Below, piece after piece: positions 3,118 to 20,675 of a stretch of 44,818 nt of DNA; positions within the stretch are counted from its first letter, which is position 1; every line of letters starts with the position of its first letter. The position numbers and the translations under genes were made by a program. The notes below the pieces were generated by a model. The model made no database searches. It saw nothing but the letters and a program-made list of their open reading frames with translations, and was not told where the DNA came from. Source of the stretch: a virus; IMG/VR virus record IMGVR_UViG_3300045988_101875, positions 1-44,818 of that record. The stretch is one strand, 5' to 3'.

Positions 3118-3437
3118 TGGGTCATATAAACCTGTGAAACTAATGGGTCACATACTCGATAAGAGTAGGAAAGGGACATTATATATACCTATAGATAACT
3201 ATAGATACCTTATAGTTACTATAGATACCATATGACCTTATATGATTCCATATGTAACCCTTAGATACCCTTGGTTCTATAGATACTATAGATACCTAAG
3301 GGTAATTGTTATTATTACTAATAAACCTAATTAATAGATACTTATAGATACCCTAAGGTTTCCTATACCTCCTAAGGATTCCTTAGGGTATTTTTTATTA
3401 TTACCTTAAATAACCTACTTATAGGAGACTATATACC
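3118..3437. repeat. AT-rich non-coding region A with many tatagatac(c) direct repeats and cctaagg/ccttagg palindromes. It is paralogous to region 12786-12960. Candidate genome-end, terminal-repeat or secondary-origin region.
   Basis: Follows the terminase stop. Repeated motifs are visible. Shares ttattaataactaataa-like and cctaagg motifs with region B. Confidence 0.5.
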
Positions 3438-3620
3438 ATGAAAGAAACCTTAATGAAACTAAAGACCTTCTTCCTTTATGGTCTTTTAATATCCATCCCC
3501 CTGTTTGTCTTCTTGTGGTTCGTGGATACTCTATCCTCATCGTTCAATCCTGAATATAGACCGCTACTTGGTTTCCTACAGATTGCAAACAGTCTGCTGC
3601 AAACCATTATAGGTATGTAA
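3438..3620 (+). CDS. Small membrane protein.
   Basis: SD aggaga 9 nt upstream. Hydrophobic 60-aa product. Confidence 0.5.
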   Translation: MKETLMKLKTFFLYGLLISIPLFVFLWFVDTLSSSFNPEYRPLLGFLQIANSLLQTIIGM

Positions 3621-3624
3621 TGCT

Positions 3625-4179
3625 ATGTTTACCACGAGAACTAAGAATATAATTGCTCTTTTACTGAGCTTTGCTATTGGAGCTGGTTGCTGCTACTTAT
3701 ATCTAAGAGGAGACAACAAAGCTTCAGAACCCCCTGTGTCCAGCTCAGATTCCAAGGGCGGACTTTTGTCTACCACAGGAATCCATGCTGAGACCAAAGA
3801 CAACCCCAATGATGAGGACTTGGTGTTGTCTAACAAATACGTCGCTGTTATTAATGGCGAGAAAGTGAGTGTGCCGATTGTTAAAAGAACTGCTGGTACT
3901 ATTAATCAACCTGATAGCACTAGTGGCTCTGCTAATGATGCACCACCGGGAGTAAAGGCTACTGTAGAACAGACTGTAGACCTCACTCCTGTGTTGTCTA
4001 AACTGCGCCCCTCTTGGGAGGTAGGTGCAGGTGTGTCCTATGTGAATGAACGTGCATATGTTCCTATATCTATCCAAAGGAACTATCAGGCTGATAAAGC
4101 ACTAGAGCTTACTGTACTTGTAGATACAGATGGTAAAGCTAAGGGTGCTATGGTACAACACAAATGGATGATAAAGTAA
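3625..4179 (+). CDS. Membrane-anchored or secreted protein (N-terminal TM/signal anchor); candidate superinfection-exclusion or conversion protein in the lysogeny module.
   Basis: N-terminal IIALLLSFAIGAGCCYLYL hydrophobic segment followed by a Ser/Thr-rich soluble domain. Confidence 0.5.
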   Translation: MFTTRTKNIIALLLSFAIGAGCCYLYLRGDNKASEPPVSSSDSKGGLLSTTGIHAETKDNPNDEDLVLSNKYVAVINGEKVSVPIVKRTAGTINQPDSTSGSANDAPPGVKATVEQTVDLTPVLSKLRPSWEVGAGVSYVNERAYVPISIQRNYQADKALELTVLVDTDGKAKGAMVQHKWMIK

Positions 4180-4349
4180 AACTTATAACTGCCCAAGAAG
4201 CAGCTAAGATTCTAAGACAAAATAAACCCGACAAGATTTACCTGCTAGTGAGGTCTAAATGCTTGTCGGGTTTCAAATGTGGTAAAAGGTGGCTTATAGA
4301 TGAGGATAGTGTCTATAAGTACATCAATAGGTGTCTTCTGAATCAATAG
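4164..4349 (+). CDS. xis: Excisionase / MerR-type HTH DNA-binding protein.
   Basis: ITAQEAAKILRQ...IYLLVRSKCLSGFKCGKRWLIDEDSVYKYI matches the excisionase-family HTH pattern. Convergent with the integrase. Confidence 0.6.
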   Translation: MDDKVKLITAQEAAKILRQNKPDKIYLLVRSKCLSGFKCGKRWLIDEDSVYKYINRCLLNQ

Positions 4350-4550
4350 TGACCAAAATAGTGACCACTATTCCAAGAATGGCTTAACCATGAGCTTTAC
4401 AGGCTCTAAAGAAAATGTTTTAACCAATACACGTATATGGTTATGTCAAATAGATTATAAAGAAATATATTGTCTAGGTAATAAACTTGTATTATTTTGA
4501 CAATGTATGCCCTTGTAAAACCTGTTGTTTGTGACTTTATAGTGTCACAG

Positions 4551-5696
4551 CTAAGCTTCTATCACAGCAACGTGTTTTTCCGAACATTCCTGCAAGATGT
4601 GTCCGTAGATAGCATAGGTAACCGCTATGCTGGTGTGTCCTAAGCGTTCTGTTATAAGAGCTATGGGTACATGCTTGTAAATCATGTTGGATGCGTTTGT
4701 GTGTCTCAGTCCATGGAACGTGAAAGGTCTAGTGATACCTGCGCCTTTCCTAGTGAAATCCCATGCATGGATAAGCAACCGCTCCACATAGAAGCTATCT
4801 CTTTTCCTATTATAGAAGATATATGGTGACTTGTCAAAGCTAAGTGGCTTTAAAGACATAAGAAGCTGTGTTGTCTTCTCAGATATTTTAATCGTGCGAT
4901 ACCCGGCTTGTGTCTTAGGGTATGTAACTATTGTCTTGTTATTCTTATCCTTAGCTAAGGTTCTTTTTACAGATATTGTATTAGCAGCATCATCAAGACA
5001 ATCCCACGTAAGAGCTAACAGCTCCCCTTCTCTCATGCCTGTTTCATAGGCAAGACAATACAGAGCATAGAACTGATACTTCAGCATAGGTTTCTCCTTG
5101 TGCTCCCATAGTGGCAGGAGGAACGCTTTGATTCGCTCGTGCTCCTCTTGCGATAAGACAACCACTTCATGTTTAGGTTTGTCACTTTTTGGTGTCTTCT
5201 GCATCGAAGTTACAGGTGACTTTCCAATAAGGTCTTGTTCTACACACCATTTGAAAAAGAGCCGTAAGCGACCTAGGTAATTGAGATAGGTATTAGTTGA
5301 ATAGTTCTTTTGTTGCCACTCTAAGAGCATGGTATCTATAGTATGAGTGGTAACCTTAGATAACGCTAAGCCATTAGCTGTGTTGTCTAGGAACTTTAGG
5401 ACACGTCTTGTGGTCAATATTACTGACCCTGACATCCGCTGAGCTTCTAGGTGCTTAAGGTACACCTCACCCTGATACTTTATTGTGTCTTCTTCTGCTT
5501 TTACTTGCAGACCTTTATCCTCTTTGTCTCTCTGAAGCTTCTTCAGCTTCTCCACAGCTTCCTTTTTTGTGTCTGCTGTGGCTGATAGCCATCGCCTTTT
5601 GCCATCCACAGGGTCTAATTCAACCCTGACACGTACTTTACCACTAGGGAGGACTATTATAGACCCCTCTCCTTTAGGTCTTCTACGAGATGGCAT
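4551..5696 (-). CDS. int: Tyrosine integrase (site-specific recombinase).
   Basis: C-terminal HGLRHTNAS...LGHTSIAVTYAIYGHI catalytic motifs. Probable start is ATG at 5696 with SD aggagg (reverse complement of 5704-5709); the ORF-track TTG at 5717 is less likely. Confidence 0.85.
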   Translation of the reverse strand: MPSRRRPKGEGSIIVLPSGKVRVRVELDPVDGKRRWLSATADTKKEAVEKLKKLQRDKEDKGLQVKAEEDTIKYQGEVYLKHLEAQRMSGSVILTTRRVLKFLDNTANGLALSKVTTHTIDTMLLEWQQKNYSTNTYLNYLGRLRLFFKWCVEQDLIGKSPVTSMQKTPKSDKPKHEVVVLSQEEHERIKAFLLPLWEHKEKPMLKYQFYALYCLAYETGMREGELLALTWDCLDDAANTISVKRTLAKDKNNKTIVTYPKTQAGYRTIKISEKTTQLLMSLKPLSFDKSPYIFYNRKRDSFYVERLLIHAWDFTRKGAGITRPFTFHGLRHTNASNMIYKHVPIALITERLGHTSIAVTYAIYGHILQECSEKHVAVIEA

Positions 5697-6209
5697 TATA
5701 AAACCTCCTGACTTCAAAAATTGCCAAAAATTGTGAAAGGGTATATATAATATAGAGATTGGCTGGTTTCCCCCCGTGCCCGGGGTCTTTGGGTCTCCTG
5801 TCGAAAATAGTGTACACTACATCTGAATAGCATATGCTATATCGGTGTTCCCAAGGGTACAAGTTACGTCCGATAATATATCTTATGTTAAATTTACCTT
5901 GTTTGTGGCAAGAGATAACCAAGCAAGCTATATGTTAGTACCTGCTTTTTATGGGGATATTGCGAACATATGTACATTATTACGAACACTTATATGTTTT
6001 ACTTTAGTATGGTAAAGTGTTAAAGTATCCAAAAATATGGCGTATAATGTATCTGTATTATATGCCCTAGGTATCTACTGTATCTACCATATCCACTATA
6101 TCCATTATATCCCTGAGCTGCCGTTGGTTGCTACTAGCTACATTACTATAGATACTATTGTTACCATTAATTACTATTGCTACAGACATTATACAGTCAC
6201 CAGCTACTA

Positions 6210-6398
6210 TTATATATCACTGCTGCGCTTGTGTGTAATGGTGGTATCCTGCTGCTCATGTATCCATTGAGTTATTAGCTGCCTGAGTAGCTCACTGCTA
6301 TTAATAGCCTTACTTTTACATAATGTTTGAAATTGCGTCCTTAACTCTTTTGATACTCTTACTTGTATAAATACGTCTTTTTGTTTTTCGTCAAACAT
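6210..6398 (-). CDS. Ribbon-helix-helix (Arc/CopG-type) DNA-binding protein; candidate lysogeny repressor.
   Basis: VRVSKELRTQFQTLCKSKAINSSELLRQLI is a beta-strand plus helix RHH pattern. Strong SD aaggagg. Divergent from the early promoter. Confidence 0.6.
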   Translation of the reverse strand: MFDEKQKDVFIQVRVSKELRTQFQTLCKSKAINSSELLRQLITQWIHEQQDTTITHKRSSDI

Positions 6399-6425
6399 GA
6401 AAAATTCCTCCTTTTCTCCATTATA

Positions 6426-6503
6426 CTACATCTCACTACATTATGCTACATTCTTATAAAATTTTCTATTTTTTTGTTGTGTAATGTATTGACATGTAAT
6501 GTG
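6426..6503. promoter_or_regulatory. Operator-like repeats: three CTACAT(T/C) copies at 10-bp spacing (6426, 6436, 6446), and two inverse-oriented TAATGT(A/G) copies flanking the -35 box (6481, 6496).
   Basis: Direct observation of repeats with helical periodicity, lying between the divergent RHH gene and the early promoter. Confidence 0.5.
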
Positions 6504-6517
6504 AACTGTGGTATTAT
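6489..6517 (+). promoter_or_regulatory. Near-consensus sigma70 promoter (TTGACA, 17-bp spacer, TGgTATTAT extended -10) driving the rightward early operon.
   Basis: -35 TTGACA at 6489-6494; 17-bp spacer; TG at 6509-6510; -10 TATTAT at 6512-6517. Confidence 0.7.
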
Positions 6518-6525
6518 ATAACCAT

Positions 6526-6563
6526 AGGGAGATACAAAAAGACTATATCCCTATATATTTTTT
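6526..6563 (+). terminator. Hairpin (agggagata/tatatccct) followed by atatatttttt in the early-promoter leader; candidate attenuator or terminator.
   Basis: 8 of 9 bp stem, 9-nt loop, then a T6 tract, located between the promoter and the first early ORF. Confidence 0.4.
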
Positions 6564-6609
6564 AAACGCCATGTAGTGACAACACACTACAAAAGGGAGG
6601 AAAAAGACA

Positions 6610-6789
6610 ATGAATGAAGAAAAAATCTTAACTTTTGCATTAAGAGAAGCCCTTAATGTTTGGAGTAAATGCAAGGATAGAGCGGATAGTATTCCTGACA
6701 ATAAAATTGCAGCATATAAGGAACAAAAAGCATGGAATGACGTGCTGTTCCTTAAAAAAATGCTTATATCCATTACTGCAGAAAAATAA
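6610..6789 (+). CDS. First early ORF (59 aa, hypothetical).
   Basis: Strong SD aagggagg 9 nt upstream. Preferred over the antisense ORF 6543..6827 because of this SD and the same-strand operon. Confidence 0.5.
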   Translation: MNEEKILTFALREALNVWSKCKDRADSIPDNKIAAYKEQKAWNDVLFLKKMLISITAEK

Positions 6790-6880
6790 GCTTTTATCGA
6801 TGCTACTAGCTGGCTAGCTAGTGGCATTCATTAAGAGCTTATTAAACTCTTAAACTTAATAACCTAGGAGGTAAATTAAT
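6788..6880 (+). repeat. Intergenic repeat element type A, copy 1: agcttttatcg, an imperfect palindromic hairpin, the conserved 27-mer tcattaagagcttattaaactcttaaa, then SD.
   Basis: The 27-mer is identical to the one at 7940-7966 and partially conserved at 8872-8920. It contains an internal taagag/ctctta inverted repeat. Confidence 0.7.
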
Positions 6881-7440: not shown

Positions 7441-7512
7441 AGTTTTTCGGACACACAAGGTTATTTGTCTTGTGTGTCTCATAAAGCTTTAAAGCTTTAA
7501 AAATTTTAGGAG
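7441..7512 (+). repeat. Intergenic repeat element type B, copy 1: agttttt, a perfect 10-bp-stem hairpin (gacacacaag/cttgtgtgtc), ataaagctttaaagctttaa, then SD.
   Basis: Same architecture and motif at 9321-9400. Confidence 0.7.
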
Positions 7513-7521
7513 GTGGCTCAT

Positions 7522-7902
7522 ATGCCAAAAATTGTACATATGACATTGAGGGATATTGCAACAGGCAAGTATAACCATGCAAGCAATATTAAGCAACTGA
7601 TGCAAGCGGATACAGCCTATATCCTGCCGGTGGGAAAAGGTAAATGCTGTATTTATACCATTGATAAAAAAGACAATGGATTGAATGTAGTGTGGTATGG
7701 GTGGGATACAACCTGCCCAACACAAGAATATGATGAGCGTACACTTTATCTATTGCCGTATCAAGGTAGACAACGTGTAGACCCCTTGTATTGCTTTAAA
7801 GCTGCTATATATGATGTAGCGGACATGCTGCACACCCTTGATCCTGATTTGCATGTACATGTATCACATGGCGTGGGGAATAGTACTACACGCATGTACT
7901 AA
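7522..7902 (+). CDS. Hypothetical early protein.
   Basis: ATG at 7522 with SD taggaggtg 6 nt upstream. The track start 7513 is an in-frame GTG. Confidence 0.5.
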   Translation: MPKIVHMTLRDIATGKYNHASNIKQLMQADTAYILPVGKGKCCIYTIDKKDNGLNVVWYGWDTTCPTQEYDERTLYLLPYQGRQRVDPLYCFKAAIYDVADMLHTLDPDLHVHVSHGVGNSTTRMY

Positions 7903-7994
7903 TAAACTTTTATCGGTACTACCGCTCCGGCGGTGGTACTCATTAAGAGCTTATTAAACTCTTAAAATTTAATAACCTTGGAGGTACAAAAAAA
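7903..7994 (+). repeat. Intergenic repeat element type A, copy 2.
   Basis: acttttatcg, hairpin ggtactaccgc..gcggtggtact, then the identical 27-mer at 7940-7966, then SD. Confidence 0.7.
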
Positions 7995-9877: not shown

Positions 9878-9911
9878 AGAGGTACGGACAAAACTGTACC
9901 TCTAATTTTTT
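9878..9911 (+). terminator. Rho-independent terminator ending the early operon.
   Basis: Stem agaggtac/gtacctct, then aatttttt. Confidence 0.7.
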
Positions 9912-9912
9912 G

Positions 9913-10131
9913 CACCCTTTTTTCGCCCCTCAACCAAACGGAACGAAACGATGTTCGTAGTTACCGAAGCTCACCTGAGCGGAACGAAACGTGTTGTCTT
10001 GTGCGACGCACGGAGCGAAACGAAACGAGGATGCAGGGGCAACCCAAGCTGACAAGGGGTGCAAGGGAATTTTAGGGCAAGCAAGGCAAGCCAAAGGGTC
10101 ACTGAATATTGAAGAAAGCAAGCAAGTTGCT
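9913..10131 (+). promoter_or_regulatory. GC-rich leader upstream of the RNAP gene, with three GGA(A/G)CGAAACG repeats and G-rich gcaagg repeats.
   Basis: Repeats at about 9939, 9981 and 10012. Composition clearly differs from the flanking sequence. Confidence 0.4.
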
Positions 10132-10159
10132 CAATGGGTACACGTAAATGAAAGAAGAC
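10132..10159 (+). promoter_or_regulatory. Conserved 28-bp element, copy 1 (caATGGGTACACGTAAAtgaaagaagac); candidate phage-RNAP promoter or regulatory site.
   Basis: Near-identical copies at 12782-12809 and 12965-12993. Confidence 0.45.
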
Positions 10160-10184
10160 CCATTATAACTAGGAGGTATTTATA

Positions 10185-12785
10185 ATGACAAATGAAGAAC
10201 TGATGCAAGAAGAATTGAACTTAGAATCATCTTACAGACAAGATGGTTACGAAGCAGCTTTATCTGCTCTCTATGAAGCCAAAGAAAAAGAGATGGTTGA
10301 TACTGCTTTGCCTATCGGACAAGCGTTCTTCAGACACAAAGCAATGGTTGTCAAGAAAACTATGGAAGAATGGCTCATTAAAAACATGAAGCCTAAAGCT
10401 GGTGTCAAGCAGAACTTTATCTTCCTGCTGGATGATTTGAAACGTGAATTTGTTACTGCTGATGGTGATGTGGATATTGATACTATTGCCAATATCTGCT
10501 CCTCTGTCACCCTCTCCTGCCTTATCAATGCCTTAACAACCAACAGCAGTAAAGGTATGGCGTTCTTTAATGATATAGGAGCACGTATCGGTGTTAACCT
10601 GATGTTTGAGTATCAGACACAATGCTTTGATAATTGGCTGAAGACCTTACCTAAAGAAGACAAAAACAGAAAAGCACTTGCAGGTATCGACAAGCGCATC
10701 GGTATGCATTATCGCTATGTATACATGAAGAAGGCTGTTAAAAACTGTGGTTACAACATGCCTACATGGGAACAAGGTGACAATGAAGCACTTATCAACT
10801 TAGGGTGTGCTCTGCTGACATTGACAGAAGACACAACAGGATATTGGTATCGTGATTCTGACATGCACACACCTACATACCTTGTCCCCACCCCTGAATT
10901 TATTGAAGCATGGGAACGAAACGAAGACAACATGCTTGCACTTGCCCACAAGAGCTGTCCTATGGTTGTTCCACCAAAAGAGTGGGTATCTTATGATGAG
11001 GGCGGTTACTATGGAGACCTTGCAGCTTTTTCAACATTCCTGCGCTTAAAATATGGACACAACGCTTTCAGAAAAACCTATGAAGCACGTCTGCATCAAT
11101 TAGATACCCCTGATGTTTATAAGGCAGTGAACAGTATCCAAGCAACAGCATGGTGCATCAACAAAGAGGTGTTGTCTATCATCAAACAATGCCGTACCTT
11201 AGGCTATATCCCCTACGGCAAGCAGAAAGACACACACATTATGAGCTTAGATTTGGATGATGGAAAACCTGCTGATTTGCCTGAACACCCTACGGATGAG
11301 ATGGTTAAGGAATACAAGAAAAATAAAGCTCAATGGTGGAAAGGGCAAAAAAGAAGAATATCTATTATCAATCGCTCTAATACCATGATAAACATAGCGG
11401 ATAAGTTCAGTGTCTATGAGAATATCTATTTTCCTTGGAATATGGATTTTAGAGGACGTATCTATCCTATTCCATCTTTCAGTCCCCAAGGTGATGATAT
11501 TTGCAAAGGCTTGTTGCTCTTTTCTGCTACCCCTCCTTGTCAAGACCCTAAAGATATTGAATGGCTTGCCATTACCGGAGCTAACCTTGCAGGTGAAGAC
11601 AAAATCAGCTATGCTGACCGCATCCAATGGGTTTATGCCAATGAAGAAGTTATTCTTGATGTAGCAAAAGACCCTATGGGTAACTTATGGTGGTTACATA
11701 AAGACAAAAAGCCTGTACAACTGCTGGCATGGTGTCTTGAATGGGCAAAAGCTAAGCAGTGGATAGCTGCCCATGGCTCTATTGTTGGTTGGGTAACAGG
11801 TCTCCCCTATGCTCAGGACGGCACATGCTCAGGTCTGCAACATTTCAGTGCTATTCTGCGTGACCCCATCGGTGGTGCTGCGGTGAACCTTGTACCCCAA
11901 GACAAACCGAATGACATCTATCGCTTGGTAGCTGACAAGGTAAATGTTGTCTTGAAGCAGGATGCTATGTCAGGCACTATTGACGAATGGGACGAAGAAA
12001 AGCTGAAGACCAAGTTCGGTACAAAAACTATGGCGCAGATATGGTTAAATTATGGTGTTAACCGCACTGTAACCAAAAGACCTACTATGACCCTTGCCTA
12101 TGGTGCTAAAAAGCGTGGCTACACTGAACAGATTATGGAAGATACAATCAGACCAGCTCTGAACGCTAAGACTACCTGTGGTTTTACAGAGACTAATGCC
12201 TATCAATGTGCTATGTATATGGCTGAGCTGATATGGAACTCTGTAGGTGCTACTGTTGTACGTGCTGTTGAGGGCATGGATTGGTTACATAAAGTTTCCA
12301 AACTTGTCACCAAAAATGCAAATGTAGTGTCTTGGTGCACACCTTTAGGTCTCTTGTTGCAACAAAATTATTTAAAGTATGAATCTAAGGTGATTAAGTT
12401 ACGTTGTGCCGGAAAGCGATTCAGAGTGTATGTCCCCCACCAAACAGGTGTGATTGATAAGACAAAACAGGCTAATGGTATTGCTCCGAACTTTATTCAC
12501 TCCATGGATGCCTGTCACCTTCAAATGACAGTATGCAGAGCTAAGGATGCTGGTATCAATCACTTTACCATGGTGCATGATTCTTATGGTTGCCCTATGT
12601 CTCAGGCTAAACTGATGTATGAGATTGTACGTAAAGCCTTTGTAGATATGTATACAGAGCATGATGTCTTGGATGAGTTTAGACAATATCTGCAACCTTT
12701 GGTGAATAAAGAACTCCCTGCTCCCCCTAAAAAAGGTGATTTAGACCTCAACATTGTATTGGACAGTAAGTACATCTTCTGCTAA
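10185..12785 (+). CDS. T7-like single-subunit DNA-directed RNA polymerase.
   Basis: 866 aa. Palm motifs ...PNFIHSMDACHLQ... and MVHDSYGC. Overall architecture and position as in T7 gene 1. Confidence 0.92.
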   Translation: MTNEELMQEELNLESSYRQDGYEAALSALYEAKEKEMVDTALPIGQAFFRHKAMVVKKTMEEWLIKNMKPKAGVKQNFIFLLDDLKREFVTADGDVDIDTIANICSSVTLSCLINALTTNSSKGMAFFNDIGARIGVNLMFEYQTQCFDNWLKTLPKEDKNRKALAGIDKRIGMHYRYVYMKKAVKNCGYNMPTWEQGDNEALINLGCALLTLTEDTTGYWYRDSDMHTPTYLVPTPEFIEAWERNEDNMLALAHKSCPMVVPPKEWVSYDEGGYYGDLAAFSTFLRLKYGHNAFRKTYEARLHQLDTPDVYKAVNSIQATAWCINKEVLSIIKQCRTLGYIPYGKQKDTHIMSLDLDDGKPADLPEHPTDEMVKEYKKNKAQWWKGQKRRISIINRSNTMINIADKFSVYENIYFPWNMDFRGRIYPIPSFSPQGDDICKGLLLFSATPPCQDPKDIEWLAITGANLAGEDKISYADRIQWVYANEEVILDVAKDPMGNLWWLHKDKKPVQLLAWCLEWAKAKQWIAAHGSIVGWVTGLPYAQDGTCSGLQHFSAILRDPIGGAAVNLVPQDKPNDIYRLVADKVNVVLKQDAMSGTIDEWDEEKLKTKFGTKTMAQIWLNYGVNRTVTKRPTMTLAYGAKKRGYTEQIMEDTIRPALNAKTTCGFTETNAYQCAMYMAELIWNSVGATVVRAVEGMDWLHKVSKLVTKNANVVSWCTPLGLLLQQNYLKYESKVIKLRCAGKRFRVYVPHQTGVIDKTKQANGIAPNFIHSMDACHLQMTVCRAKDAGINHFTMVHDSYGCPMSQAKLMYEIVRKAFVDMYTEHDVLDEFRQYLQPLVNKELPAPPKKGDLDLNIVLDSKYIFC

Positions 12786-12809
12786 TGGGTACACGTAAAC
12801 GAAGAAAGA
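12782..12809 (+). promoter_or_regulatory. Conserved 28-bp element, copy 2; overlaps the RNAP stop codon.
   Basis: taATGGGTACACGTAAAcgaagaaagac. Confidence 0.45.
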
Positions 12810-12960
12810 CAATAGATAACTATAGTTTTCTATAGATTCTATAGAGACCTTTAAGGACCTAAGGTTATGTTATTAATAACTAATAATAACTTACCTAAGG
12901 TAACTAAAGGTCTCTATTGTCTTTATAGTCCCTTTAAAATCCTTTAGGTAACTAAAGAAA
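12786..12960. repeat. AT-rich non-coding region B (origin-like). Contains a 12-bp inverted repeat atagagaccttt (12840-12851) / aaaggtctctat (12905-12916), cctaagg palindromes and tatagat repeats. Paralogous to region A.
   Basis: Direct observation. The position immediately after the RNAP gene parallels the T7 primary origin. Confidence 0.5.
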
Positions 12961-12964
12961 ATGC

Positions 12965-12993
12965 TAATGGGTACACGTAAACGAAGAAAAGAC
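12965..12993 (+). promoter_or_regulatory. Conserved 28-bp element, copy 3.
   Basis: taATGGGTACACGTAAAcgaagaaaagac. Confidence 0.45.
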
Positions 12994-13057
12994 AACACAC
13001 TTTTCAAAAATCTAAATCGAGCCGTTTCTATCAACCTTTCTGTGTGTTGTCTTTTCT
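12985..13057. repeat. Perfect 16-bp inverted repeat agaaaagacaacacac (12985-13000) / gtgtgttgtcttttct (13042-13057), separated by 41 bp.
   Basis: Exact reverse-complement match read from the sequence. Confidence 0.8.
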
Positions 13058-13083
13058 CAATAATTTTTAAGGAGGTATTGTCT

Positions 13084-13524
13084 ATGTTGAAACAGGACGC
13101 TCGTGTAGGTCAGAGGGTATCAGTTACACATGGTGCTGATAAAGGCTGCACAGGTATAGTAATAGGCTTAAGGTCTACACATGCTCTTGTCCATCTTGAT
13201 GGTAGTGAATCTGCGCTGGTTAGTTTTTTAAGTTACGACATGCTTGAACCTTATACACCTGACCATGCCACTAGCAATCAAGCAAAATATTATGATGAGC
13301 ATTATGCATCCATGGTAGGCTTAGAGCCTATCGAACTGATGCAGCTTGTGTTGTCTCCTGCTGAATTTATCGGCTTTCTCAAAGGCAACATCATCAAATA
13401 CACCCTGCGTGCTGGAAAGAAGCAAGGTGAAGCTGCAGAAAAGGATGCAGCTAAGGCTAAACGCTATACCGAATGGCTTACGAAACTTGGCTATAAGATG
13501 CCAATCAATCCAAAGGAGGACTAA
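13084..13524 (+). CDS. DUF3310-family protein (N-terminal KOW-like segment).
   Basis: C-terminal ...AEFIGFLKGNIIKYTLRAGKK... matches the DUF3310 signature. SD aaggagg. The track ORF start at 12961 lies in the non-coding promoter element. Confidence 0.6.
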   Translation: MLKQDARVGQRVSVTHGADKGCTGIVIGLRSTHALVHLDGSESALVSFLSYDMLEPYTPDHATSNQAKYYDEHYASMVGLEPIELMQLVLSPAEFIGFLKGNIIKYTLRAGKKQGEAAEKDAAKAKRYTEWLTKLGYKMPINPKED

Positions 13525-18132: not shown

Positions 18133-19463
18133 ATGCTTTACTTTGATATAGAAACAGATGGTCTTTTAGATACCCTCACCAAAGGGCACTGCATGGTTAT
18201 TATTGATGAACAAAATAATATATCAGCGTATCGTCCTGATACTTTCAAAAAAGGAGCTATGAGATTAATTTCTGCTCTAAAAGATGGCGAAAGTATTGTA
18301 GGGCATAATATTATTTCCTTCGACTTAGAAGCTCTTGCTAAGCTCTATCCTGAGTTCCGCATAAAGCGAGAATGGAGACCACAAGTCTTAGATACTCTTG
18401 TACTTGCACGTCTTATCTGTGGCAACATAGAAGATACTGACCACGCTAGAGTACGTAATGGTACACTCCCTGCTAAGCTGCTTGGTAGGCAGTCTCTAAA
18501 GGCGTGGGGGTATCGCCTTGGGGAGCTTAAAGGTACGTATGGTGAACAAGAAGATGCATGGGATTCCTTTAGTGAAGAGATGCTCTCCTATTGTGTGCAG
18601 GATGTCACTGTCACAAAGAAGCTCTATACATACCTTATGAAGATTGGAGCACCTGCTAAGGCTATAGAGCTGGAGCATCAGGCACAATGGCTGATGTCTA
18701 AGCAGGAGCGAAATGGTTTTGTCTTTGATTTAGAAAAGGCAGAGAAGCTGAGGGAAACCTTAGAGCTACGCTATGCTGTGTTGTCTTCTCAGCTCGTGGC
18801 GATTGTGCCACAGATACCTGATAAGGTCTTCGTACCTAAGAGAGACAACAAACGCTTAGGTTATAAGAAGGGTGTCCCTATCCAAAGATATAAGGATTTT
18901 AATCCTAGTAGCAGACAGCAGGTGGCATGGGTGCTGGAACATCAATTTAATTATCTGCCGGAAAACGAAGACTGCTATGAGGATGAAAGACTGAAGATTG
19001 ATGGTGATACCTTTAAGTTTATTAAGGGTGACGAAAACGCACCACAGGAGCTAAGAGATTTAGCTGCTGTCTTTGAGGAATACCTTATGGTAGCTAAGCG
19101 TCTTGGACAGTTAGCCACAGGTAACCAAGCATGGCTGAAGCATGTTAAGGCTGATGGTAGAATCCATGGCAGCGTAAACCCTTGTGGTACTGTAACAGGA
19201 CGTGCTACCCATGCGAACCCTAATGTTGCCCAAGTACCCCACGTTGGCAGTCCCTACGGACAAGAGTGCAGGGAATTGTTTAGAGCACCTGAGGGTTGGT
19301 TTGAGGTGGGTGTAGATGCCTGTGGCTTGGAGCTTAGGTGTCTAGCACATTATCTTTATCCCTATGATAAAGGTGCTTATGCCCATGTTATCTTGAATGG
19401 TGATATCCACACATTGAATCAACAGGCTGCTGGGTTACCTACAAGAAACCAAGCGAAGACCTT
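18133..19463 (+). CDS. DNA polymerase (T7 gp5-like, family A), exon 1 (3'-5' exonuclease and N-terminal polymerase part).
   Basis: MLYFDIETDGL Exo I motif. ...GDIHTLNQQAAGLPTRNQAKTF aligns with T7 ...GDIHTKNQIAAELPTRDNAKTF. Confidence 0.9.
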
Positions 19464-20149
19464 TGACTAAATAGAGGTCTATAAACCCATTGAAAACGGT
19501 GAAACTCTCACTGAGACAATACCGTGCGAAGCTAAAAAGGAGAAGAATGACTAGAGAAGATTATCTACAAAAGATGCTACAAATTGTGGCAGGAAATAAA
19601 CCTAAGAAATTACAGACAGCAAAACCAAGTAAGTACCCACAAGGCTATTTCAAAGCAAAGAAATGTAAGCATTGTGGGTCTATTTTTATTCCTAAAGCTC
19701 CTTCTGAGCATTACTGCTGTGACTTCTGTAAAGATTATGGTGTCACCAATGCTTACTATAAAAGAGTGTATGGTCTTACCCTTGATGATGTATTAGATAT
19801 GGCAGAAAATCAAAATTTTGTCTGTGCTATTTGTCATGGTGATAACTTTGCTATGAATGATTGCCACTCAGGGGTGCTTGTTGTTGACCATGACCACGAG
19901 ACAGGTAAAGTGCGTGGGTTGGTCTGTCATAACTGTAATCGTGCCTTAGGTTTGCTACATGATGATGTTGATAATTTCCGTAGAGCTATTTCCTATTTAG
20001 AACGTGTAACGACTATTCCGGAAGGAAGTACAGTACAAGCTGATGGTGCTGGAAGCGGTGGGCATTGATGATATAGTCTGCTCTCATAGGTGACTATGAG
20101 CTGTCCTTATGGACGCATAGGGTGTTGCGAACCCTATGGAACATTTTGG
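19464..20149 (+). mobile_element. Approx. 686-bp intervening sequence in the DNA polymerase gene, carrying an HNH endonuclease ORF; most likely a group I intron.
   Basis: Joining 19463 to 20150 restores KTF|IYAFLYGSGD (T7: KTFIYGFLYGAGDE). The upstream exon ends in T, the insertion ends in G, and the insertion carries in-frame stops. Confidence 0.7.
19490..20068 (+). CDS. Intron-encoded HNH (Endo VII-type) homing endonuclease.
   Basis: CKHCG...CCDFC zinc ribbon and VVDHDHETGKVRGLVCHNCNRALG HNH core. The true start may be ATG at 19547 (SD aaaaggag). Confidence 0.75.
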   Translation: MKTVKLSLRQYRAKLKRRRMTREDYLQKMLQIVAGNKPKKLQTAKPSKYPQGYFKAKKCKHCGSIFIPKAPSEHYCCDFCKDYGVTNAYYKRVYGLTLDDVLDMAENQNFVCAICHGDNFAMNDCHSGVLVVDHDHETGKVRGLVCHNCNRALGLLHDDVDNFRRAISYLERVTTIPEGSTVQADGAGSGGH

Positions 20150-20675
20150 TATTTATGCATTTCTCTATGGTAGTGGAGACAAAAATCTTGGCAAGCTTCT
20201 TGGTGGTGATGAAGCTATGGGCAAGAAAGCAAAGAATAAGTTTCTGAAGGCTACCCCTGCTATCAAGATGCTGCGTGAAGCTGTCAAGAATACACTTGTG
20301 GTTGAGTACCACGGCAAAATTAAAGAATGGAAACGAAAATATTTAAGAGGGTTGGATGGCAGACATCTCCATGTGAGAAGTCTACATTCAGCTCTCAATT
20401 TGCTTTTACAGTCCTGTGGTGCATTGATATGTAAAAAATGGACTGTAACTTGGGAAGAAAATATGGTGAAGGCTGGCTATGACCATGGCAAAGACTTCTT
20501 TTGGATGGCAAATATTCATGATGAATCCCAAATAGCCTGCCGTACTAAAGAGATAGCTGAAGATGCTAGCCGAATTGCCCAAGAATCTATGAGACAAACA
20601 CAAGAATATTATGGAATCAGATGCCAATTAGATACCGAGGGAAAGATTGGTCAAAATTGGTATGATTGTCATTGA
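20150..20675 (+). CDS. DNA polymerase exon 2 (motifs B and C, C-terminus).
   Basis: IYAFLYGSGDKNLGKLL...VHDESQIACR...LDTEGKIGQNWYDCH aligns with the T7 gp5 C-terminus (...LDTEGKMGPNWAICH). Confidence 0.88.

Follow-up and report, generated by a model that had tools for sequence, protein, structure and literature searches.

A site-specific integration module and a predicted ribbon-helix-helix immunity switch in a T7-like phage of human-gut Phascolarctobacterium

Temperate T7-like phages are already known, among them Agrobacterium phage Pasto, the HTVC019P pelagiphages, LUZ100 and T7-like Pseudomonas prophages (PMC10134795; bioRxiv 10.1101/410191; see also Boeckman et al. 2022 on temperate T7-likes, as cited in PMC10134795). 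In the Pasto/HTVC019P/LUZ100 group a MarR-like regulator adjoins the integrase gene int (PMC10134795), and in the known temperate T7-likes attB is located in tRNA genes, and attP separates int from the gene encoding the phage RNA polymerase, RNAP (bioRxiv 10.1101/410191). Positive feedback has been proposed for phi1, a phage-type promoter ahead of the RNAP gene of LUZ100 (PMC10134795), and T7-like cyanophages have been described as integrating without stable lysogeny (PMC8776855). Here we analyse the viral record IMGVR_UViG_3300045988_101875, a stretch of 44,818 bp that we call the window, in which the region around int likely serves a temperate T7-like phage of Phascolarctobacterium as its module for integration and immunity, with a small ribbon-helix-helix (RHH) protein acting as repressor of the single early promoter and of itself. 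The original prediction on this DNA had taken T7-like phages to be classically virulent; as a strict rule this view is now outdated, and because temperate T7-likes have been described the novelty of the module is smaller than that prediction implied.

Like the Pasto/HTVC019P/LUZ100 group, the window combines a T7-type genome and single-subunit RNAP with a tyrosine integrase, integrated copies occur in host genomes, and a small regulator lies beside int, upstream of the RNAP gene, where it is proposed to keep the RNAP off. LUZ100 has a phage-type promoter, phi1, directly before its RNAP gene, and a candidate for such a promoter lies at 10133 in the window. The regulator, however, is a 62-aa RHH protein here and a MarR-like winged helix there, and it is divergent from the early sigma-70 promoter, whereas in that group it is co-transcribed upstream of int. 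The attB site is intergenic, between thiE and purL and with a 7-bp core, instead of lying in a tRNA gene, and attP follows downstream of int, with an xis-like gene on its other side, rather than lying between int and the RNAP gene. Finally, the host is a Negativicute (Firmicutes), unlike the proteobacterium or cyanobacterium hosts of the known temperate T7-likes.

Integration module and attachment sites

As the original prediction had read, an xis-like gene on the plus strand is convergent with a tyrosine integrase gene on the minus strand (Table 1), and both products scored above the Pfam cut-offs. The integrase matched PF00589 (E=2.2e-24, 86.6 bits against a cut-off of 27.1) and PHROG 1 (E=2.7e-60), and its catalytic residues, assigned by motif and not by structural alignment, were readable in the translation as R222 (MREGE), H328/R331 (HGLRH), H354 (LGH) and Y364 (IYGH). 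The xis-like open reading frame (ORF) matched PF12728 (HTH_17) over residues 7-57 of 61 (31.6 bits, cut-off 27) and PHROG 66 (E=0.0017); its domain together with its position beside attP and int predict an excisionase.

The integrated copies that the original prediction had proposed to look for were found as well, with attL and attR, and the junctions, attP and the empty attB share one 7-bp core. In three related loci (L009, L002 and L020) similarity to the window ends at 4418 and host purL follows, defining attL, and in three others (L015, L018 and L019) similarity coming from the xis side ends at 4424 and host thiE-thiM-thiD follows, defining attR. The integrase gene marks the attL end of the prophages, adjoining purL, and the xis-like gene is located at the attR end. 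The sole sequence common to attP, attL, attR and attB is the 7-bp TTTTAAC. A 28-nt pattern for the predicted empty attB, in which the host flanks are joined around the core, occurred exactly in 65 human-gut metagenome contigs; in the five contigs checked, 1.2 kb of each host flank were contiguous with exactly 7 bp between them. The attB site corresponds to the thiE-purL intergenic region, ~60 bp upstream of the purL start, and the length of the core, read from these alignments, is typical of the overlap region of tyrosine recombinases (6-8 bp). Comparison of these sequences demonstrates site-specific recombination between attP and attB. Exact-protein look-ups located the phage family in metagenome contigs of 50-220 kb, and free circular forms with intact attP are represented by the window and by loci L014 and L017, with 98-100% identity to the window across attP. 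Since integrated copies and free circular forms were both found, both states of the element have been sampled. Insertion in the purL promoter region might alter host purine gene expression.

The stop codon of xis, at 4349, lies 69 bp from the attP core, and the tandem AATAGTGACCA in this P arm could provide arm-type binding sites for Int or Xis. The tRNA and Rfam searches of the whole window revealed no tRNA or tRNA fragment, and a sensitive Rfam scan of 4300-6650 gave chance-level matches only, which rules out a tRNA-type attP. An att site in the 5' end of the RNAP gene, suspected from one scaffold (L001/L016; ENA ERZ28621273 scaffold_80, 55 kb), was rejected. In this scaffold a 99%-identical phage is joined at window ~10245, around codon 20 of the RNAP, to Bacteroidales-type genes encoding NigD, an outer membrane protein (OMP) beta-barrel and an extracytoplasmic function (ECF) sigma factor. 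Because attP is intact there (xis beside int), the RNAP is cut to a 32-aa stub and all other junctions fall at 4418-4424, the scaffold is most likely an assembly chimera.

Because its 55-bp ends, recovered by the repeat search, are identical, the window represents a circularly assembled, complete genome, of ~44.76 kb and cut inside the nrdD gene. The T7-type set of replication, structural and terminase genes is collinear in its ORF map, following the order single-stranded DNA-binding protein, endonuclease I, primase-helicase, DNA polymerase, exonuclease, portal, scaffold, capsid, tail and terminase, as established from Pfam annotation of near-identical and related loci plus that map. Megablast of 25 kb of the window against 50,697 phage records returned zero matches, and the lineage is without representative among phage isolates; the closest phage RNAP in the GenBank-derived INPHARED collection shares at most 38% identity with that of the window. 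A scan of genome collections identified one lysogen, the Phascolarctobacterium metagenome-assembled genome HGM14019, whose integrase is 98% identical to that of the window. On this sequence evidence the element is a T7-like phage of human-gut Phascolarctobacterium, a diderm Negativicute of the Firmicutes, that truly integrates into its host. A limited literature search, whose silence is no proof of absence, found no paper naming both Phascolarctobacterium and T7-like phages, and a preprint on Negativicute prophages leaves T7-like ones unmentioned.

The ribbon-helix-helix protein, its alleles and predicted operators

The candidate repressor is encoded on the minus strand, between int and the early promoter. 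Its Pfam scores fell below threshold both for DUF6290 (1e-4, 22.6 bits, cut-off 27) and for RHH_1 (4e-3, 17.5 bits, cut-off 20.5), its homologues carry weak precomputed PF10723 and PF01402 matches, and its best sequence match in the PDB, ParG, was not significant (E=0.05). A profile built from 32 homologues retrieved from the PDB sequences only spurious RNase H matches to the conserved helix, so that comparison of folds was needed. The AlphaFold2 monomer model (predicted local distance difference test, pLDDT, 80.6) consists of an extended segment, residues 1-16, followed by helices at 17-30 and 34-60, and the top Foldseek matches in the PDB were overwhelmingly RHH proteins, namely ParD, CopA, ParG, AmrZ, Arc and CopG, with template modelling (TM) scores of 0.6-0.76 and probabilities up to 0.99; the E-values were weak, as expected for ~45 residues. 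As modelled, the 62-aa ORF has the RHH fold. It holds no S24 domain; the Pfam and PHROG scans of early ORFs detected no other DNA-binding regulator, nor did any ORF scanned in the module and early region match MarR. The C-terminal tail EQQDTTIxHKRSSDI (window 6210-6260), a low-confidence part of the model, is kept even in type E, whose helices diverged (types are defined below). This tail may have a part in induction, as a tag for degradation or as a peptide that binds a partner, or it may just mark the edge at which the immunity cassette recombines.

Divergent from this gene lies a near-consensus promoter, matching the sigma-70 consensus at 11 of 12 positions, which is the sole strong rightward sigma-70 promoter and heads the operon running toward the RNAP gene; its TGGTATTAT element is conserved across all related loci. 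Three repeat arrays, which we designate O1 to O3, accompany the two promoters. In O3, CTACAT recurs at 6426, 6436 and 6446 and, imperfectly, as CTCCAT at 6416, a periodicity for which 0.00 triplets were expected (100 shuffles). Because the array spans the core promoter of the repressor, from about -7 to -38, it has the layout expected for autoregulation. The -10 TATAAT of that promoter is conserved in all allele types, mostly as an extended -10, TGnTATAAT, the window copy being without the TG. The ATGTA copies of O1, inverted relative to those of O3, bracket or overlap the -35 box, and O1 as a whole also reaches into the early-promoter spacer. O2 was recovered by the repeat search as both an inverted and a direct repeat. 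Taken by itself the 5-mer says little, ACTACAT having 12 occurrences in the window where 9 are expected. In the 210-bp intergenic region, six ATGTA/TACAT stand against an expectation of 0.58, a tied maximum among all sliding windows. The RHH gene, the promoter, the periodic triplet and the two inverted repeats around the -35 box thus stand as originally predicted, with the RHH assignment now supported by the fold comparison; O2, the repressor -10 and the position of attP had been missed.

The argument for a functional link between protein and repeats comes from covariation among 18 related loci, comprising 14 loci of types A to E and loci fetched for four later alleles, F to I. Across the 14 loci the C-terminal half of the protein, LCKxKAINSSELLRQLITQWIHEQQDTTIxHKRSSDI, is almost invariant, and residues ~3-24, among them the beta-strand with which RHH proteins enter the major groove of DNA, fall into the discrete types A to E. 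A wider homologue search yielded 79 clusters with the same constant and variable pattern and at least four further strand alleles, hence at least nine alleles overall, in which a variable N-terminal strand (residues ~8-16) is set on a constant helix-helix half and C-terminal tail. Each type is accompanied by its own half-site or palindrome: ATGTAGT/ACTACAT half-sites in type A, that of the window, ATGTAGCTACAT in type B, TTGTTGCAACAT in type C, ATGTATATACA in type D and ATGTAATTACAT in type E. Counted over the ~210-bp intergenic region of each of the 14 loci, the cognate hexamer reaches 4-8 copies and the non-cognate ones 0-2, so that the matrix of types against hexamers is cleanly diagonal.

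The positions of the predicted operators are constant. O1 occupies the early-promoter spacer, ending just before the TGG of the extended -10, and carries a cognate 12-bp palindrome in the other allele types. O2 lies at about +54 to +77 of the leader, just before the ribosome-binding site (RBS), and is absent in type C; types B, D, E, F, G and I have there a cognate palindrome accompanied by a third half-site. O3 adjoins the RHH gene on its upstream side, in the form of direct repeats at 10-bp spacing or of a palindrome. Four alleles that had not been used in forming this rule served as a prospective test, with three clear fits and one loose one. Alleles F and G bring new motifs to the three constant positions. 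In F, TTGTCATGACAA occupies the promoter spacer and GTCATGAC the leader, and a pair of GTCAT copies, 10 bp apart, precedes the RHH gene; in G, TTGTGTCCACAA is found in the spacer and two copies of GTACACAA, 10 bp apart, in the leader. Allele I, whose type B strand (TVIRLRV) is set in a protein and a phage that otherwise diverge, shares the palindrome of type B. The general operator motif is (A/T)TGT-N4-ACA(T/A), in which the invariant TGT/ACA would parallel the invariant Arg14 of the strand and the central bases appear to track residues 10 and 12. The proposal that the repeats are repressor operators is thereby backed by allele-specific covariation at conserved positions: they behave as operators of the RHH protein, presumably through physical binding, and the co-variation of strand alleles with operator hexamers suggests that the beta-ribbon sets their specificity.

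Two type C phages (L013 and L005), in the equivalent of window 6520-6600, are without leader hairpin and O2 and have instead GTTATAACA/TATAACA in at least four copies, a hint of a second DNA-binding factor or of a leader that is structured differently.

Table 1. Positions of the integration, immunity and early-region features in the window
Feature	Position	Strand	Description and basis
xis-like gene	4164-4349	+	61 aa; HTH_17/MerR-type excisionase family
Tandem AATAGTGACCA, two copies	4345-4367	+	12 bp apart; P arm, 50-70 bp from core; repeat search
attP core/overlap TTTTAAC	4418-4424		Between xis and int; junction alignments
Tyrosine integrase gene	4551-5696	-	381 aa from ATG at 5696; alternative upstream TTG at 5717
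Noncoding spacer, RHH gene to int	5697-6209		~490 bp; conserved in alignment of 13 loci
RHH protein, candidate prophage repressor	6210-6398	-	62 aa
Operator O3 (predicted)	6416-6451		Four CT(A/C)CAT half-sites at exact 10-bp spacing, over the repressor's own promoter
Repressor -10	6425-6420	-	Perfect TATAAT; 21 nt upstream of RHH start codon
Operator O1 (predicted)	6484-6503		ATGTA at 6484-6488 and 6494-6498, 10 bp apart, plus ATGTG at 6499
Early promoter, sigma-70, extended -10	6489-6517	+	TTGACA 6489-6494, 17-nt spacer, TG 6509-6510, TATTAT 6512-6517
Leader hairpin	6524-6565	+	11-bp arms, then T-run; ~10 nt past predicted transcription start; inverted-repeat search
Operator O2 (predicted)	6571-6592		Inverted ATGTAGTG/CACTACAA half-sites in early 5' leader, just upstream of RBS of first early gene
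First early gene	6610-6789	+	59 aa; no family match
Strong intrinsic terminator	9878-9903	+	Between early genes and RNAP gene
AATGGGTACACGTAAATGAA, candidate phage-RNAP promoter	10133-10152	+	One of three copies; 33 nt upstream of RNAP start codon
T7-type single-subunit RNAP gene	10185-12785	+	PF00940 E=1e-98; PHROG 414 E=4e-225

The proposed switch, rival explanations and neighbouring features

Several further elements lie between the early promoter and the phage RNAP. The leader hairpin has an RNA fold z-score of -4.35, is conserved in RHH types A, B, D and E, and shows compensatory changes of the stem from GGG/CCC to GAG/CTC in other loci; it resembles an intrinsic terminator or an attenuator placed right after the main early promoter. 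The terminator at 9878-9903 is followed by a 270-nt noncoding leader with 89% mean identity (nine loci), above that of the neighbouring coding DNA. The 20-nt motif AATGGGTACACGTAAAYGAA occurs three times against 0.01 expected, always on the plus strand, at 10133-10152, 12784-12803 and 12966-12985, and the copy ahead of the RNAP gene, if it is a phage promoter, suggests positive feedback. The original prediction had spoken of a complete lysogeny switch; the parts that it listed are present, but the switch appears larger, including also O2, the leader hairpin, the pre-RNAP terminator and candidate promoter, and attP.

Prophage silence most likely depends on one small RHH repressor, which would hold the lytic programme at its starting point, a single promoter of host type. 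In the mechanism we propose, Int would recombine the attP core at 4418-4424 with attB between thiE and purL, placing int, the RHH gene, the early promoter and the RNAP gene at one end of the prophage and xis at the other. The RHH protein, presumably as cooperatively assembling dimers, would insert its N-terminal beta-ribbon into the (A/T)TGT-nn half-sites of O1, O2 and O3. Occupation of O1, and perhaps also of O2, would keep the host RNA polymerase off the early operon, so that without early transcription no phage RNAP would be made and all middle and late genes would stay silent, and occupation of O3 would make the repressor autoregulated. The leader hairpin and the pre-RNAP terminator probably reduce background read-through, and with the candidate phage-type promoter ahead of the RNAP gene the exit from lysogeny would probably amplify itself. 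The first early gene is not a dedicated Cro, because it varies independently of the RHH allele.

The RHH protein might instead bind these sites as an Arc- or Cro-like modulator of early transcription during lytic growth or establishment, with lysogeny maintained by a host factor, by the LexA-type site in the int-RHH spacer or by the pre-RNAP terminators. P22 Arc, itself an RHH protein, acts as such a modulator, T7-like phages normally shut host transcription after the early phase, and the RHH protein is without a sensor domain; the conserved LexA-box-like sequence at 5963-5976 and the terminator-like elements at 6524-6565 and 9878-9903 would also fit this explanation. The layout of the region argues otherwise, however, since the RHH gene runs opposite to the lytic programme and co-oriented with int, behind its own sigma-70-type -10, as in a lysogenic transcript. 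Likewise, it encodes the only detectable DNA-binding regulator of the module, and discrete alleles with matching operators constitute a signature of immunity specificity, whereas the LexA-like box has two mismatches and overlaps no identified promoter. We consider a mere modulator unlikely.

It is highly improbable, in our judgement, that the RHH protein is a cargo antitoxin or a plasmid-type CopG/ParG/omega regulator whose repeats serve its own small operon, the proximity of the early promoter being coincidental. Its nearest neighbours in structure and sequence are indeed antitoxins and plasmid regulators (ParD, CopA and ParG, and in Pfam RepB-RCR_reg and DUF6290), and one database source labels a homologue as an antitoxin of the RelBE/YafQ-DinJ type, but no toxin or partition gene adjoins it, ~490 bp of noncoding DNA and then int being found there instead. 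Moreover, cognate sites reach beyond the RHH upstream region into the early-promoter spacer and the early leader in every allele type (except for the O2 absent from type C), the near-invariant C-terminal half is common to all 79 homologue clusters, and each of the 18 loci with a context that was read belongs to a T7-like phage. The repeats might finally not be protein sites at all, reflecting RNA structure or chance repetition in AT-rich DNA next to an unregulated early promoter; the ATGTA 5-mer is weakly informative and the O2 palindrome also folds as an RNA hairpin. To this we give hardly any credence, considering that the periodic triplet has an expectation of 0, that the motif tracks the protein allele at three positions, and that O1 and O3 lie outside the early transcript.

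Repression of the early promoter by the RHH protein has to be weighed, in turn, against several observations that fit it poorly. The sequence-only matches to RHH families stay under the Pfam thresholds, and the protein has no recognisable sensor or autocleavage domain, which makes its induction hard to explain. The operators of type A, the type of the window, are direct repeats or imperfect sites, unlike the clean 12-bp palindromes of the other types; allele H, type A-like and with A-like sites, follows the rule only loosely; and type C, without O2, has a different repeat, GTTATAAC, in its place. The xis-like gene is the last gene of the late strand, which leaves the timing of excision hard to place; because of this position and of its 16-nt overlap with the preceding 184-aa late-strand ORF, excision may depend on late transcription. 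Some of the prophages, moreover, could be defective.

With these reservations, we incline, at moderate confidence, to see here the first recognised temperate T7-like lineage of a Firmicute, widespread in human guts, in which the whole lysis-lysogeny decision is placed on one RHH protein and one sigma-70 promoter, backed by terminators and RNAP feedback, and whose heteroimmune cassettes, at least nine, would embody a recognition code from beta-strand residues to the central 4 bp of TGT-N4-ACA. The family is an abundant and well-documented human-gut addition to the small set of temperate T7-likes, which it extends to the Firmicutes, and it bears on the proposed temperate origin of T7-likes as well as on the screening of phages for therapy, where a T7-like phage is assumed to be lytic. 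Built from a single repressor, a single host promoter and a single phage polymerase, the switch would be unusually minimal and easily dissected. The most valuable products of the comparison are the proof of site-specific integration and the allele-operator series, which offers ready-made orthogonal RHH repressor-operator pairs and a data set on DNA reading by beta-ribbons, useful for work on protein-DNA recognition and for synthetic circuits around T7-type polymerases.

The noncoding spacer between the RHH gene and int contains no ORF conserved across the loci, and a 40-aa ORF with a D-x-V repeat was rejected for this reason. An invariant block, GATATTGCGAACATATGTACAT, holds the LexA/Cheo-box-like CGAACATATGTACA (5963-5976), which matches the Firmicute LexA box at 12 of 14 positions, the best match in the window, and which we take as only a lead on induction. 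A GC-rich hairpin at ~5768-5790, a 9-bp tandem array of TATCTACNN (~6066-6110) whose copy number varies between loci and one copy of a 19-nt motif at 6147-6165 were also observed. An int promoter or other regulation of int, an origin and a genome terminus are the candidate functions of the spacer.

This 19-nt motif, TATAGATACTATAGATACC, occurs four times on the plus strand with 0 expected, at 3118-3440, 6147-6165 and 12806-12880. The islands that contain it abound in TATAGATA(A)C and in short repeats resembling CCTAAGG, and the largest island follows the terminase gene. The islands could mark termini or a concatemer junction (compare the short repeats near the ends of the T7 genome) or form a second class of phage promoters; the two candidate phage-promoter families each count few copies, three of AATGGGTACACGTAAAYGAA and four of TATAGATACTATAGATACC. 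A degenerate tandem copy of AATGGGTACACGTAAAYGAA is present at ~10095, and the central bases of this motif differ in relatives with divergent RNAP. The sequence ATAGGGAGA after the early -10 box (6524-6532) was rejected as a T7-type phage promoter, the 16-mer being single-copy in the genome. In the pre-RNAP leader, which together with the terminator before it spans 9878-10184 and which could be a structured RNA or a regulatory region, three GGAACGAAACG repeats are accompanied by GCAAGCAAGG repeats, and one leader repeat overlaps CGAAACGATGTTCG, a LexA-box arm pattern with one mismatch.

Elsewhere, intergenic elements of ~90 bp with internal inverted repeats separate early genes at 6785-6873, 7443-7514 and 7897-7986; they recur in related loci and recall the sites that RNase III processes between the early genes of T7. 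The DNA polymerase gene of the window (18133-20675) is split by an ORF whose counterpart in the close relative L006 has an Endonuclease_7 domain (445 aa + 192 aa + 179 aa), and among related loci (L004-L013) some have the gene intact at 618 aa. HNH and other homing-endonuclease-like ORFs differ in placement from genome to genome, an HNH_3 protein being encoded at 504-860, after nrdD. An exact look-up of the 187-aa ORF at 12961-13524 gave no match.

Comparison with known immunity and RHH systems

Small RHH regulators are known from other viruses and from plasmids. In the immI region of P22, Arc and Mnt control only the antirepressor, the primary immunity repressor being the helix-turn-helix (HTH) protein C2, and in lysogens of the Sulfolobus virus SSV1 the protein F55 is reported to bind tandem repeats located both in its own promoter and in early promoters. 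With these proteins the candidate repressor of the window shares its small size, the RHH fold with an N-terminal beta-ribbon and, by prediction, operators that overlap promoters and autoregulation; unlike in P22, the RHH protein here appears to be the sole primary repressor. No significant sequence similarity links it to Arc, Mnt, F55 or the plasmid proteins omega and CopG.

The plasmid RHH regulators, such as omega of pSM19035, CopG and ParG, recognise ~7-bp units in arrays of direct or inverted repeats spaced at about one helical turn or less. The fold, the use of repeat arrays and the predicted repression of several promoters by one protein are common to these regulators and the window, whereas the plasmid systems govern copy number or partition and the one described here would govern a prophage. 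The half-sites differ too, being 10 bp apart or joined in 12-bp palindromes, and their specificity has diversified into many alleles.

Lambdoid immunity regions, with CI and Cro and their heteroimmune imm434, imm21 and immP22 variants, offer a parallel in logic: divergent repressor and early promoters with shared operators, autoregulation, an int-xis-attP module and a recombinational swapping of repressor-plus-operator cassettes that yields heteroimmune relatives, features which the window, as we read it, would reproduce. Its regulator, however, is no HTH CI and has no LexA-like cleavage domain, there is no operator-linked Cro, and a single early promoter would control all phage genes through the phage RNAP, in place of the lambdoid antitermination cascade.

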